This document shows positions 7,365 through 17,351 of a stretch of DNA of 64,000 nt, piece after piece. The first letter of the stretch is position 1; each line of letters begins with the position of its first letter. Below the pieces are notes generated by a model that saw nothing but the letters and a program-made list of their open reading frames with translations, ran no database searches and was not told where the DNA came from. The stretch lies in the sequence record PQ438391.1; one strand, given 5' to 3'. The translations under genes were made by a program, and so were the position numbers. This DNA is from Escherichia phage vB_Eco_T-01.

Positions 7365-7598
7365 ATGAAAACTTTCAAAGAGTTTATCGCTGAATCTTCT
7401 GATGTAAAAGTTGAGTTTATTTACACCGGCAAGAAAGATAAAATGGGTGAAATGCCTCATGGAGTTCTTCGTGATGCATTAGATAATTTCGGTCAACTCG
7501 CCGCAGAAGATTACGGTGATAAAATTGTTGTTACTGGTCCTGCTGCAGTTATTGAAAAATGGGCAGCAGAAAATAAATCAATTTTTCGTAAAAAATAA
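7365..7598 (+). CDS. internal-protein-like protein (N-terminus MKTFKEFIAE resembles the T4 capsid targeting sequence)
   Basis: ORF track starts at 7299; the MKTFKEFIAE start at 7365 lies downstream of an early-promoter-like sequence. Confidence 0.5.
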   Translation: MKTFKEFIAESSDVKVEFIYTGKKDKMGEMPHGVLRDALDNFGQLAAEDYGDKIVVTGPAAVIEKWAAENKSIFRKK

Positions 7599-7656
7599 GT
7601 TTACTTTTAGATAGGGTAGTGATACTATTACCCTATCAACTACCGAGGAGAATAAA

Positions 7657-7842
7657 ATGAAACGTTGTGAATTAATTCGAAATGTTGCTATTGCAATTTC
7701 TGCTTCTGCTTTTAGTTTTTCAATGTTTGTTGGATTTATATGCGGATTATTGACTACAGCAGAAAATGTGTTTTCACTTGTAGTAGCATTTTTAATTGGT
7801 TTAATTGCTATCGTTATGGATAAAATTTCTAAAGGTGAATAG
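7657..7842 (+). CDS. small hydrophobic membrane protein
   Basis: 61 aa, two predicted hydrophobic helices, GAGGAG RBS. Confidence 0.45.
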   Translation: MKRCELIRNVAIAISASAFSFSMFVGFICGLLTTAENVFSLVVAFLIGLIAIVMDKISKGE

Positions 7843-7843
7843 A

Positions 7844-8224
7844 ATGTACAAAGTGTATGCGGATTATCAGGCTAATCCATCTGAAAAGCCAGGTTGTCAA
7901 ATTGGATGGGCTCATGATACTTTGCTTGAAGCAGTAGATGCTGCTCAAAAATTGGGATATAAATATGTAGAGATTGTTCAACCATCAGGAAAGGTTATTA
8001 CTCTTGAAGAGTTCAATAACATTAAACCAAACTTTTTACTTTTTGCAGGTGATAATTATTATCCTCGTGGTGGATATGCTGATTTAATCGCGAAAGCCGC
8101 CACTGAAGATGAACTCCGTGACATTATCAAAGAAAATGAAAACAAACCAGATTATGGTTCCAATCGCTTTGATTGGTGGCAAATTGTAAATGCCAATACG
8201 CATACTATTGTTGATGAAGGTTGA
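7844..8224 (+). CDS. hypothetical protein
   Basis: ATG at 7844 after RBS AAAGGTGA; ORF track start 7805 is probably too early. Confidence 0.5.
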   Translation: MYKVYADYQANPSEKPGCQIGWAHDTLLEAVDAAQKLGYKYVEIVQPSGKVITLEEFNNIKPNFLLFAGDNYYPRGGYADLIAKAATEDELRDIIKENENKPDYGSNRFDWWQIVNANTHTIVDEG

Positions 8225-8514
8225 TAATGATTCTTTATGCGAAAGTATCGTCCATTGAAAATGGATATAAATATGATCAAGACGCGGCTAAAGCCTTGAT
8301 TGATGATTATGGCATTTTAACATTTTTTGAAGTTGAAAAGGTTTACATTGACCGTTCATCTTCACAAGTTAAATTAGTAAAGGAAGACCGTAAATTTAAT
8401 ACAGTAAATTTTGATTTCTTTATTGAAACAGAAAAAGGTCCTCTTGAATATGATATTTTCAAGAATCCTTTGGGTCTTGAATGCATCGTAAATATGTATT
8501 ATCATAAATGGTAA
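8221..8514 (+). CDS. hypothetical protein
   Basis: 97-aa ORF overlapping the preceding stop. Confidence 0.45.
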   Translation: MIMILYAKVSSIENGYKYDQDAAKALIDDYGILTFFEVEKVYIDRSSSQVKLVKEDRKFNTVNFDFFIETEKGPLEYDIFKNPLGLECIVNMYYHKW

Positions 8515-8611
8515 ATATGCTTTAAGAATTATTTGTTATTATTAACTCATATCGCACTGATTAATACCCTCTATCATCAAGGGTTCTTATTTGAGAGCCT
8601 TTGTTAATAAT

Positions 8612-8684
8612 TGGGAATTAGCCAAGTTGGTAAGGCACTGGATTTTGATTCCAGGATGCAAAGGTTCGAGTCCTTTATTCCCAG
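8612..8684 (+). tRNA. tRNA-Gln (anticodon UUG)
   Basis: Manual cloverleaf: acceptor tgggaat/attccca, anticodon loop ttTTGat, T-loop GGTTCGAGTCC. Confidence 0.85.
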
Positions 8685-8685
8685 C

Positions 8686-8772
8686 GCGAGAATGGTCAAA
8701 TTGGTAAAGGCACAGCACTTAAAATGCTGCGGAATGATTTCCTTGTGGGTTCGAGTCCCACTTCTCGCACCA
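8686..8772 (+). tRNA. tRNA-Leu (anticodon UAA), long variable arm, CCA encoded
   Basis: Acceptor gcgagaa/ttctcgc, anticodon loop ctTAAaa, T-loop GGTTCGAGTCC. Confidence 0.85.
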
Positions 8773-8777
8773 AATTT

Positions 8778-14668: not shown

Positions 14669-15153
14669 TTTTAAAAACTCGCTGGTATGATTTAGATGAT
14701 GGGGATGATGGCATTCCAGTTGATAGAGTTGACTGGAATGGCTGTTCCGAAGATATGAAAAATTTGTTGATTAGGGAGTTTAGAATGGGATATCAAGCAG
14801 CTAAGCCATCTATTATAACAGATGATAAATTCGTGTGTATTCATAATGGTCGCGCTAAGTTAACGAACGCTGATTGGTTCACAGATAAGATTATGATTCT
14901 GTGGTATATTATTAGTTTTCCTGTGACATCATTCGTATTTTACTTTTTTATAAAAAATCCAATGGACAGAATAGGAGATTGGATTATTTTAACCATACTT
15001 GTTAATATTTTTACAGCAGCAATATTATCTGGGATATGGTACACGTTCATTGAAATGCCATGGCGTTTACGTAGGCAGCAAAAGATTTTTGATGAAAAGA
15101 AATATACTCAAAATTTAAATAATTTTATCACCGAATGCAGGAAATTAAAATGA
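14665..15153 (+). CDS. membrane protein, paralog family member
   Basis: 162 aa, hydrophobic helices, ends ...NFITECRKLK. Confidence 0.5.
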   Translation: MILKTRWYDLDDGDDGIPVDRVDWNGCSEDMKNLLIREFRMGYQAAKPSIITDDKFVCIHNGRAKLTNADWFTDKIMILWYIISFPVTSFVFYFFIKNPMDRIGDWIILTILVNIFTAAILSGIWYTFIEMPWRLRRQQKIFDEKKYTQNLNNFITECRKLK

Positions 15154-15590
15154 AAACATTATCAGCTGGTATTATCTTTATGACAGAAGATAAAGATTTA
15201 TTCATGGGACGGGTTACTGGTTCTCGTAAGCCTGGAATGATGGCACATCGCTGGGATATTCCAAAAGGCCGTGTAGAAAATTCTGATTTGAGCGCACTAG
15301 ATGCAGCACGAAGAGAATGCTTAGAAGAGACCGGTTTTAGCAATTATAATCCAGACCTTCTAGAAGACCTAGGTGTATTTAAATATTCTAGTAATAAAGA
15401 CTTACAGCTGTTTTATTATACGATTCCAGTAGAGCATGAGATGTTTAGAAATTGCCATTGCGAGTCTTATTTTGAAAATAAAGATGGTGTTATGATTCCA
15501 GAGATGGATGCTTTTGCTCTTATTCCTCGTACTCAGTGGCAATATGTGATGGGTCCTTCACTTTACCGAATAATGAACAGCCTCTTTTAA
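15135..15590 (+). CDS. nudE: Nudix hydrolase NudE
   Basis: 151 aa; Nudix box GRVENSDLSALDAARRECLEETGF; position immediately before e. Confidence 0.85.
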   Translation: MQEIKMKTLSAGIIFMTEDKDLFMGRVTGSRKPGMMAHRWDIPKGRVENSDLSALDAARRECLEETGFSNYNPDLLEDLGVFKYSSNKDLQLFYYTIPVEHEMFRNCHCESYFENKDGVMIPEMDAFALIPRTQWQYVMGPSLYRIMNSLF

Positions 15591-15592
15591 TT

Positions 15593-15614
15593 TATAAATA
15601 CCTTCTATAAATAC
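15593..15614 (+). promoter_or_regulatory. two tandem late promoters (TATAAATA at 15593..15600 and 15607..15614) upstream of e
   Basis: Two exact TATAAATA motifs 13-34 bp upstream of the lysozyme start. Confidence 0.6.
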
Positions 15615-15626
15615 TTAGGAGGTATT

Positions 15627-16115
15627 ATGAATATATTTGAAATGTTACGTATAGATGAAGGTCTTAGACTTAAAATCTATAAAGACACCGAAGGCTATTA
15701 CACTATTGGCATTGGTCATTTGCTTACCAAAAGTCCATCACTTAGTGTTGCCAAATCTGAATTAGATAAAGCTATTGGACGTAATTGCAATGGTGTAATT
15801 ACAAAAGATGAGGCTGAAAAACTCTTCAATCAGGATGTTGATGCTGCTGTTCGCGGAATTCTGAGAAATGCTAAATTAAAACCAGTTTATGATTCTCTTG
15901 ATGCTGTTCGCCGCTGCGCATTGATTAATATGGTTTTCCAAATGGGAGAAACCGGCGTGGCAGGATTTACTAATTCTTTACGTATGCTCCAACAAAAACG
16001 CTGGGATGAAGCAGCAGTAAATCTAGCCCAATCTAAATGGTATCGTCAGACACCTAATCGCGCGAAACGCGTAATCTCAACATTTAAAACAGGAACTTGG
16101 AAAGCGTATATATGA
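15627..16115 (+). CDS. e: endolysin (T4 lysozyme e)
   Basis: 162 aa; [35 protein letters not shown]... is near-identical to T4 lysozyme across most of the length, with some substitutions and a shorter C-terminus. Confidence 0.97.
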
Positions 16116-16393
16116 AAACATATAGTGAATTTTTATCAGAATCTATTCTTAACGAAGCTACTGACACATTTGCAACTAAGCTAGGTGCAGCTTTGGTTGA
16201 AGCTGAAAGTCTATTAGCACGTATTTCTGAACTTGCTAGTAAGATAGATACTCGCAAATTTGAACGTACCAGCGATATCGTTAAGCTTGAAGCCTTGTTG
16301 CGTATGTGCGATAAACCAGAAGAAATCGCTAAGAACGGCTCGCTAATGAAACAACGTCTTGAAAAATATATTTCAGGCGCTTCAGAAAAATAG
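16112..16393 (+). CDS. internal-protein-like protein (N-terminus [11 protein letters not shown])
   Basis: Start overlaps the e stop (ATGA); 93 aa; capsid-targeting-like motif. Confidence 0.55.
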
Positions 16394-16451
16394 TGTTTAC
16401 TTCCTCCAAGGACTTTGATACTATACATTCATCAACTACTTGGAGGAAATT

Positions 16452-16868
16452 ATGACTCGTATCAATTTAACACTTGTTTCTGAACTGACCGACCAACATC
16501 TTATGGCTGAGTATCGTGAATTGCCGCGTGTTTTTGGTATAGTTCGTAAACATGTGGCAAATGGTAAGCGGGTTAAAGATTTTAAAATATCTTCCGAGTT
16601 TATTTTAGGCTCTGGTCATGTTACGTTCTTTTACGATAAGTTAGAATTTTTGCGAAAGCGTCAATCAGACATTATAACGGAATGCTTAAAACGTGGGTTC
16701 AATATAAAAGATACTGAAGTTCCTGACATCAGCGATATTCCAGCAGAATGGAAAAATGATTATAATCCATGCAAATCAGCTATTAAATTGAGTCAACAAC
16801 GACTCGATGAAAAAATTTTAATGAAGCCACACTGGTATAAATACTACGGTAAAAATATTTACATTTAA
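16452..16868 (+). CDS. denV: endonuclease V (pyrimidine dimer DNA glycosylase) DenV
   Basis: [29 protein letters not shown]... matches T4 DenV; ATG at 16452 after GGAGG RBS gives 138 aa. Confidence 0.9.
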
Positions 16869-16877
16869 AGGAAACAC

Positions 16878-17351
16878 ATGAAAACATATCAAGAATTTAT
16901 CACTGAAGCAGCTATTAATTCTCAAATTATTGCTGAATCTTTTACTGATCTTTTGAAATTTAAAAAAGGTCAAAAAATCACTGCTGTATTGGATGATGGT
17001 ACAGAAGTTGAGATGGATGTACAGGGATATAATTATGCAGTAGATGGAAAACTGTATAATAAATCTCACGCTAAATTTGATTCATTTGACGACTTTGTTA
17101 ATACAGTTGAAGATGAAAAAACTCGTAGATCAATTTCAACTGGCGATGCTAAGGTTCTTATGGCGCACGGTCATGAACGTATCCGCGCCAAACAGAATAA
17201 AATGGGTGAAGATAATTTTGCATTAGTTGGTTATCAATCTGGTAAGCAAACTTATGGCTATCAGCGTACTGCTACCATGTATAACAAAAATGGTAAAATC
17301 GCTTTCGTGAATAGCAAAGGCTCTATTCAGTACGTCAAATCATTCAAATAA
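16878..17351 (+). CDS. internal-protein-like protein (N-terminus MKTYQEFITEAA)
   Basis: 157 aa; capsid-targeting-like motif. Confidence 0.55.
   Translation: MKTYQEFITEAAINSQIIAESFTDLLKFKKGQKITAVLDDGTEVEMDVQGYNYAVDGKLYNKSHAKFDSFDDFVNTVEDEKTRRSISTGDAKVLMAHGHERIRAKQNKMGEDNFALVGYQSGKQTYGYQRTATMYNKNGKIAFVNSKGSIQYVKSFK

Follow-up and report, generated by a model that had tools for sequence, protein, structure and literature searches.

The internal proteins (Ips) of T-even phages carry an N-terminal capsid-targeting sequence (CTS), which in T4 corresponds to the first 10 residues of IPIII and suffices to bring foreign proteins into the head (PMC9026906; PMC3012670). Amber-suppressor mutagenesis has assigned the targeting determinants to residues 4 and 7, and processing to residues 8 and 10 (PMC9026906). 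At least 10 Ips have been reported among T-even phages, and each of Ip1, Ip2 and Ip3 acts specifically on its own GmrSD variant, a type IV restriction enzyme (PMC12373910); in addition, Bas37_0260 is a CTS-bearing inhibitor of McrBC, for which protection was shown genetically (HIDEN-SEQ preprint 10.1101/2025.11.20.689424). Here, we analyze six open reading frames (ORFs) with such a leader in a 64,000-nucleotide stretch of Escherichia phage vB_Eco_T-01 (PQ438391.1), hereafter the window; the ORFs are named by their start positions (w7365, w10389, w10984, w16112, w16878 and w61969). Five of them are probably CTS-bearing internal-protein cassettes, and the sixth is gp61.1, a miniature paralogue of the capsid protein gp23 that may enter the prohead as well. 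An initial annotation, made from the sequence alone, had related these leaders to T4 internal proteins and to their injection, which is already established T-even biology; it is reportedly covered by Repoila 1994, Mullaney and Black 1996 and Silas 2025, and the cassette-shuffling picture of the Ip genes is reportedly credited in the literature to Repoila et al. 1994. That annotation named a function for IPI; the view that IPI is the sole internal protein with a known target has been overtaken by the data on Ip1, Ip2 and Ip3.

In the mechanism established for T4, a leader of about 10 residues binds the scaffolding core during prohead assembly, an aromatic residue at position 4 and Phe 7 being required, and the prohead protease gp21 cuts after Glu10 in an (L/I)xE motif; the mature protein then remains in the head with the DNA and is injected together with it, and T-even internal proteins block modification-dependent (type IV) enzymes of the GmrSD and McrBC kinds. 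The five cassettes are distributed over three variable loci, namely ipI (7365), e-denV (16112 and 16878) and, directly after the rnaC terminator, an insertion of 1.2 kb (10389 and 10984), and would be exchanged via recombination inside shared promoter, CTS and terminator modules, and w61969 (gene 61.1) most likely enters the prohead and would be cut at the same LxE site. The motif, synteny, family membership, promoter and terminator anatomy and gp23 homology come from the present analysis, and the CTS function, the targets of Ip1-3 and Bas37_0260 and the virion peptides of the Ip4 and gp61.1 homologues from the literature; from these we infer the packaging of w10389, w10984 and gp61.1 in this phage, as well as the targets of all the proteins except w7365.

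The shared leader and the recognised internal proteins

The window is approximately 95% identical to Tequatrovirus genomes, such as that of Escherichia phage Kelasse, has 35% G+C, and is read on its + strand in the sense of the T4 minus strand; in gene order, 57A/57B are followed by the ipI locus, the tRNA cluster, e.8-e.1, lysozyme e and denV, with 41, 61.2, 61.1, 61 and 56 at the far end, and the head gene cluster (102-106 kb in T4) lies beyond it. The six ORFs are ATG-initiated, all on the + strand, and start at 7365 (77 amino acids), 10389 (157), 10984 (187), 16112 (93), 16878 (157) and 61969 (54). All six coordinates had been correctly given in the initial annotation and the leader itself is confirmed, although the pattern proposed for it, MK[TS][YF]xEF, fails at 10389, where residue 6 is Gln, and the range assigned to all six, 7365-17351, leaves the ORF at 61969 some 45 kb outside. 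The pattern MK[TS][YF]x[EQ]F[IL]xE opens exactly six ORFs in all six frames of the window, with MKTFKEFIAE in w7365, MKSYAQFLNE in w10389, MKTYAEFLTE in w10984, MKTYQEFITE in w16878 and MKTYKEFIKE in w61969. At the nucleotide level, the degenerate pattern ATGAARWSNTWYNNNSARTTYHTNNNNGAR gives six matches on both strands, which are the six ORF starts, against a chance expectation of 0.00 (maximum 0) in 100 dinucleotide-preserving shuffles. In a position-weighted scan of all Met-initiated ORFs of at least 40 amino acids, the six score 11 and the runner-up, a spurious antisense ORF, scores 7; given this gap, no leader-bearing ORF was missed.

The proposal that these leaders are capsid-targeting sequences of the T4 type is well borne out, since the four positions defined by mutagenesis, i.e., an aromatic residue 4, Phe 7, Ile or Leu 8 and Glu 10, are kept in 6/6 ORFs. 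A cleavage site after the N-terminal Glu, for which the initial annotation had suggested looking, is likewise present: residues 8-10, the gp21 processing site, read IAE, LNE, LTE, LSE, ITE and IKE across the six ORFs, so that each has an (L/I)xE site, and w10389 and w16112 carry a second LNE↓A site at residues 13-15 (arrows mark cleavage points). The conserved leader residues are encoded by differing synonymous codons among the copies (ACT/ACC/ACA/TCA; ATC/TTA; GAG/GAA), and the leader is therefore conserved at the protein and not at the nucleotide level. In the comparison with T4 IPI, IPII and IPIII, also advised there, similarity is limited to the first 10-19 residues and disappears once the leader is removed, as described for this class, with no match of the mature parts at E-values up to 1. 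The mature parts are also mutually dissimilar between families, with the exception of w16112 and Bas37_0261. The PHROG matches of the proteins run from residue 1, i.e., the leader is conserved inside each family; a Pfam search of the six proteins returned DUF7412 for w16878 only, and the word-indexed homologue searches gave close relatives only.

The initial annotation had also raised the possibility of uncharacterised anti-defence effectors, and this may hold for w10389 and w10984, unrecognised until now as candidates, but not for w16878, w7365 and w16112, which belong to already named internal proteins. In the ipI locus, between 57B and the tRNAs, w7365 (7365-7598, +; 77 amino acids) has the CTS MKTFKEFIAE↓S, is Ip6-like (phrog_8111, one of the PHROG families for internal virion or head proteins; 73% identical to a gene annotated ip6) and shares 73/77 residues (95%) with Bas37_0260 of phage KarlGJung, encoded at the same locus, with all four differences in the first 12 residues and complete identity from residue 13. 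It is the orthologue of that inhibitor, with McrBC as its probable target here. The first 21 nucleotides of w7365 are those of the neighbouring Bas37_0261 gene, and an early-type (sigma-70-like) promoter module, TTTACA-17-TACTAT (7302-7330, +), precedes it as part of a repeated promoter module, GTAGTGATACTATTACCCTATC, which occurs at 7318-7339 and 7616-7639 (+), ahead of every ipI-locus gene. The leader-confined differences, the shared 21 nucleotides and the repeated module fit the cassette-shuffling picture. The w7365 leader is a mosaic: two neighbouring genes of Bas37 have contributed their leaders to it.

The two other recognised proteins lie at e-denV. In the ipIII/ipII slot, w16112 (16112-16393, +; 93 amino acids) is Ip5-like, with 47% identity to genes annotated ip5, matches phrog_3499 ("internal head protein") and has an N-terminus ending in ↓SILNE↓A. 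Its ATG overlaps the stop codon of lysozyme e (ATGA), so that it is translationally coupled to e, and the two TATAAATA late-promoter boxes upstream of e (15593-15613, +) would also serve it. The mature part of w16112 is 54% identical to Bas37_0261, and since w16112 is located at e-denV and this relative at the ipI locus, cassettes move between loci. Downstream of denV, w16878 (16878-17351, +; 157 amino acids; CTS MKTYQEFITE↓A; phrog_3155 "internal virion protein"; carrying the DUF7412 domain) is Ip4, sharing 99.4% of its residues with the product of T2 ip4, and is preceded by a TATAAATA box at 16836-16843 (+), 42 nucleotides upstream. A PDB sequence search with w16878 and w7365 returned nothing meaningful and no match to the solved IPI*, and the single-sequence AlphaFold model of w16878 was unusable, with a predicted local distance difference test score (pLDDT) of 45.

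Support for packaging and processing of the Ip4 family is direct, and comes from published mass spectrometry of CsCl-purified virions of Klebsiella phage ValerieMcCarty04 (Jiaodavirus), in which peptides are written with their flanking residues. The Ip4 homologue of w16878 in this phage, VMC04_119 (approximately 68% identical), is represented by 66 peptide-spectrum rows, with no leader peptide, and the string ESRLATVG occurs twice more than NESRLATVG; two peptides therefore start at S11, directly after LNE10, in agreement with the predicted cut. Within the set discussed here, the presence in virions with the leader removed has support by proxy for two members, through the homologues of Ip4 and, as described below, of gp61.1.

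The known Ip loci (57B-tRNA and e-denV) hold w7365, w16112 and w16878, while w10389 and w10984 lie behind the rnaC terminator, and w61969 upstream of the primase gene. Only nine TATAAATA late-promoter boxes are present on the + strand of the 64 kb, two of them 42-44 nucleotides before w10389 and w16878 and two before e/w16112. On the same strand, no exact box was found for w7365 or w10984, and none within 39 kb upstream of w61969, which speaks against an assignment of these three to the head cargo; the objection is weakened because for T4 ipI, ipII and ipIII, too, the RNA falls into the early class and the protein into the late one (T4 omics).

gp61.1 and the cleavage region of gp23

The ORF w61969 (61969-62133, +; 54 amino acids; MKTYKEFIKE↓DMVAGDSGGNPENISTGTTSGAVVNKGPEQIPKKKK...), immediately upstream of primase gene 61, is the orthologue of T4 gp61.1, whose sequence, MKTFKEFIKEDMVAGDSGGNPENISIGTTSGAVVNKGPEQIPKKKKEESKEKEE, opens with MKTFKEFIKEDMVAG... 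and carries the leader. T4 has therefore a fourth leader-bearing ORF, and the initial idea of a set larger than and different from that of T4, right at its core, gains nothing from w61969. Residues 2-38 of gp61.1 align with residues 57-93 of T4 gp23 (43% identity over 37 amino acids, BLASTP E 1e-8; hhalign probability 96%, E 3e-9), and the alignment places E10↓D11 of gp61.1 on the gp23 maturation cut, E65↓A66 (PMC9546572). The segment of gp23 to which the small protein corresponds thus includes the gp21 maturation site together with residues 66-93, the first 28 of mature gp23, which belong to the N-terminal region making up the N-arm and N-fist, and the pattern [FY]xxF[IL]xE↓ is common to gp23, gp61.1 and the Ip leaders. 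Residues 66-105 of gp23 face the interior and probably touch the scaffolding core before expansion (PMC9546572), a contact by which a mimic could be brought into the prohead. The protein lacks the HK97-fold body (the 54-amino-acid w61969 has no Pfam match), and, although databases use labels such as 'major capsid domain-containing protein', it is a fragment-sized gp23 paralogue rather than a capsid protein.

With tblastn, 1,396 phage records across Straboviridae yielded relatives of gp61.1; some of these relatives carry the annotation "major capsid protein", and one match falls inside gene 23 of Acinetobacter phage 133. A profile search against 1.84 billion representatives gave 51 clusters of the family and no full-length capsid protein at E ≤ 0.001. 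The family (PHROG 1823; long form PHROG 2086) has the core xMVAGDxGGNxxNIAxGxTSGxxxxxGP followed by a Lys-rich tail, both present in w61969, and includes short forms of approximately 50-70 amino acids and long forms of approximately 130-165. Two members of approximately 250 amino acids, P0062 and P0078, consist of the long-form N-terminal domain, an MVSGD core and Lys-rich tail, and then a CTS-like NFKQFVEGLE↓A... with a further domain; they look as if the gp61.1 gene were fused, or mis-called, with a downstream leader-bearing gene.

A role of gp61.1 outside the head is less likely than not. The protein could be an early cytoplasmic product of the replication/primase module, or an N-arm mimic acting as decoy or regulator, with a CTS-like start inherited from the gp23 region, since the homology with gp23 57-93 accounts for the motif by descent. 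In favor of this, and at odds with a head location, the gene sits in the early replication operon across Straboviridae, directly upstream of the primase gene in phages of Escherichia, Aeromonas, Acinetobacter and Klebsiella; T4 transcribes it early, the protein being not classified (T4 omics), and, as noted above, no late promoter is near; the leader is less conserved than the core (EDMVAGDxGGN...GAVVNKGP), some members have non-CTS starts, and the long forms carry an unrelated N-terminal domain of approximately 100 amino acids. The T4 virion mass spectrometry supplements (PMC5694885) do not list gp61.1. On the other hand, the leader keeps all four experimentally critical targeting and processing residues, early RNA is also a property of the T4 ip genes, and a hydrophobic-x-Glu motif ([LIVMF]xE) stands within three residues before the MVAGD core in 39/44 representatives, the long forms included, which is hard to explain without proteolysis.

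The virion peptides of ValerieMcCarty04 point in the same direction. Its gp61.1 homologue (MKTFKEFVKLNE↓EMVAGDAGGNPQNIASGTTSGAVVNK...) has three confident matches starting right after LNE12, two of the form E.EMVAGD...NK.G (E 3e-16) and one E.MVAGD...NK.G (E 2e-15), so that the only good tryptic peptide of this homologue, from purified virions, starts exactly after LNE; no tryptic peptide spanning the cleavage site is present in these data. Semi-tryptic peptides are the accepted way to identify gp21 sites; on the opposing side, the three matches fall under the 15-match virion threshold of the authors, and ragged semi-tryptic peptides are common in the dataset. Taking both sides together, we lean slightly towards gp61.1 being packaged and processed, and its predicted post-cleavage peptide would be DMVAGDSGGNPENIS(T/I)GTTSGAVVNK. 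The broader proposal, that gp61.1 is an overlooked internal peptide present throughout Straboviridae and that the capsid propeptide is the source of the CTS, is tentative and a little short of an even chance. A function of gp61.1 as a decoy in Lit/Gol abortive infection was also considered and provisionally dropped; the similarity to gp61.1 stops at gp23 residue 93, and the Gol region of gp23 presumably begins shortly after it.

In this part of the window, the orthologues of 61.2 and 61.1 are separated by an extra ORF of 108 amino acids (61641-61967, +) that T4 lacks. Its product is a paralogue of gp61.2 reduced to the C-terminal half (36% identity over 87 amino acids, E 4e-8), and both end in ...SIDDQIFNAFMN[KR]G. 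Between primase 61 and dCTPase 56 there are only 174 nucleotides (63165-63338), where T4 has a dam methyltransferase; no dam homologue was found anywhere in the 64-kb window.

A probable third locus behind the rnaC terminator

The two ORFs w10389 and w10984 form a 1,225-bp insertion relative to T4 (10348-11571), exactly behind the rnaC terminator hairpin, which occupies 10315-10338 (+) and constitutes its left edge. A TATAAATA late-promoter box (10345-10352, +) stands 44 nucleotides upstream of w10389 (10389-10862, +; 157 amino acids; N-terminus MKSYAQFLNE↓AVLNE↓A), a second hairpin terminator, identical to the rnaC copy, separates the two cassettes (10870-10893, +), w10984 (10984-11547, +; 187 amino acids; CTS MKTYAEFLTE↓A), a paralogue of w10389, follows, and a terminator at 11556-11574 (+) closes the pair, with T4 homology resuming at 11572. 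The identical 24-nucleotide hairpins, AGCCCCGACCGAAAGGTTGGGGCT, at 10315-10338 and 10870-10893 (+) bracket w10389, and the insertion junctions relative to T4 fall at the GGGCTTTTT(A/G)GT tails of terminators; this arrangement suggests that the locus may have been built through recombination at terminators. Both proteins belong to phrog_2280, of "unknown function" (E 4e-60 for w10389 and 1e-53 for w10984), and all the records examined, drawn from 511 phage records for w10389 and 164 for w10984, call them a "hypothetical protein".

Judged from sequence features, w10389 and w10984 are probably internal proteins, encoded at a third Ip locus. It appears less likely that they keep the leader and are nevertheless not packaged in appreciable amounts, either as late cytoplasmic proteins or as decaying cassettes in which the leader persists by recombination with true ip genes. 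PHROG 2280 members from other genera, with identities as low as 34-42%, still have the leader and the LxE site, while the body diverges (MLEYSEFLKE... for a phage of Yersinia; MKFKEFLAE↓A for phages of Klebsiella), and a Jiaodavirus (Klebsiella) member retains the same layout of hairpin, TATAAATA box and CTS. The family is also widespread, as the record counts above indicate, with intact ORFs, and the mature forms are basic, with isoelectric points of 9.6 (w10389) and 9.5 (w10984). T4 IPII and IPIII are likewise basic. The predicted post-cleavage peptides would be ASSTEIQAVAK and AVLNEASSTEIQAVAK for w10389 and AAKLPSEADLTK for w10984.

Several observations favor the absence of these two proteins from the head. 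Besides their "hypothetical" status in all databases and the missing exact late box of w10984, the AlphaFold model of w10389 (pLDDT 75), in which a Pro/Lys linker joins a three-helix domain to a helical hairpin, gave in Foldseek searches of PDB and BFVD only generic helical matches or its own uncharacterised family, with no tie to known internal proteins. Moreover, two leader-bearing proteins of ValerieMcCarty04 are not seen in its virions: VMC04_131, encoded at the equivalent third locus with the same late-promoter layout, has 0 rows, and VMC04_161 a single junk row; the IPII and Ip4 homologues, by contrast, were detected. A CTS-like leader is thus no guarantee of detection in the virion. The phage lacks the PHROG 2280 family, and the unrelated VMC04_131 occupies that position; its virion absence is therefore indirect evidence only. 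VMC04_131 had first been taken as a PHROG 2280 homologue, which BLAST ruled out. As to the genes themselves (11202-11786 and 17897-18280 in ValerieMcCarty04), VMC04_131 (MKFKDFLTEEELFE↓A) belongs to the tRNA/e.8 locus and is preceded by a hairpin and a TATAAATA box, and VMC04_161 (MKSYQEFLME↓T) in the ipI locus.

Finally, that the shared start is a nucleotide-level element (a translation-initiation or mRNA signal), or an artefact of chance or gene conversion with no function in the protein, has in its favor that promoter and leader modules visibly recombine at the DNA level, and is already effectively refuted by the zero chance expectation of the leader pattern, the synonymous codon variation at conserved residues, the experimental action of the leader as a peptide on foreign proteins, and the virion peptides of homologues that start directly after the predicted cut.

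Upstream of the insertion, 10001-10347 (+) is 93% identical to the small stable RNA region rnaD/rnaC of T4, terminator included; Rfam gave no family on 9600-11700, and the region is recognised by similarity to T4 alone. The tRNA cluster (8612-9632, +) has 11 genes (Gln, Leu, Gly, Pro, Ser, Thr, Met/CAT, Tyr, Asn, His and Arg) versus 8 in T4, is devoid of the segB homing endonuclease, and an ORF of 116 amino acids (9651-10001) follows tRNA-Arg.

Significance and comparison with known systems

Host immunity encounters the injected internal proteins before any other phage product, and since each characterised Ip disables a specific type IV restriction enzyme, the Ip catalogue of a therapeutic or model T-even phage helps to predict its host range. 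In this phage, three of the six proteins are assigned to named families, one of them with a known target (McrBC). The additions to the known biology are a candidate family with its locus and the recognition of gp61.1 as a capsid-protein mini-paralogue. PHROG 2280, with more than 500 phage records, is a new candidate for an injected effector, at a locus outside the "two Ip loci"; if correct, the rnaC terminator would be followed by a third Ip locus, whose products would be new anti-defence proteins delivered by injection. As regards gp61.1, a functional-looking leader, its relationship to the capsid protein and the peptide evidence of prohead-type cleavage in a relative make a decades-old orphan gene of T4 testable; if the proposal holds, the Ip leader would be, in evolutionary terms, the tail end of the capsid-protein propeptide, and gp61.1 a fourth internal component of T4.

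Among the closest described systems are Ip4 of T2 and the Ip5 and Ip6 series of T-even phages (names of Repoila et al. 1994, as they appear in GenBank), matched by w16878, w16112 and w7365, respectively, although for the Ip5 series w16112 is found in the e-denV locus and its closest relative, Bas37_0261, in the ipI locus. Bas37_0260 of KarlGJung differs from w7365 in the leader only (MKTFKEFIAESS versus MKTYQEFIAETA). With respect to gp23, gp61.1 differs in lacking, besides the HK97-fold body, the first 56 propeptide residues, and in having a lysine-rich tail and a location in the early region. Features of the Ip leader, namely a hydrophobic residue at -7 and -4, L/I at -3 and E at -1, recur in the 10-residue propeptide of T4 gp24 (MAKINELLRE↓S) and at the cleavage site of gp23 (FGSFLTE↓A), and this resemblance suggests that a single core-binding and cleavage module may serve shell and internal proteins. 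More distantly, the ejection proteins of phiKZ and SPN3US and the T4 protein Alt share the principle of an N-terminal propeptide that brings cargo into the prohead and is removed after Glu by the prohead protease; the propeptides of the giant phages, however, comprise 80-130 residues with an AxE or SxE motif and are unrelated in sequence. With T4 IPI, IPII and IPIII, whose function is the injected inhibition of type IV restriction enzymes, the proteins described here share the 10-residue leader with its (L/I)xE gp21 site, the small size and the non-essential cassette organisation, and the two T4 loci (57B-tRNA and e-denV) house three of the six; nevertheless, none of the three T4 proteins is present in this phage and nothing is alike beyond the leader, and the targets of its internal proteins presumably differ from the enzymes inhibited by those of T4.

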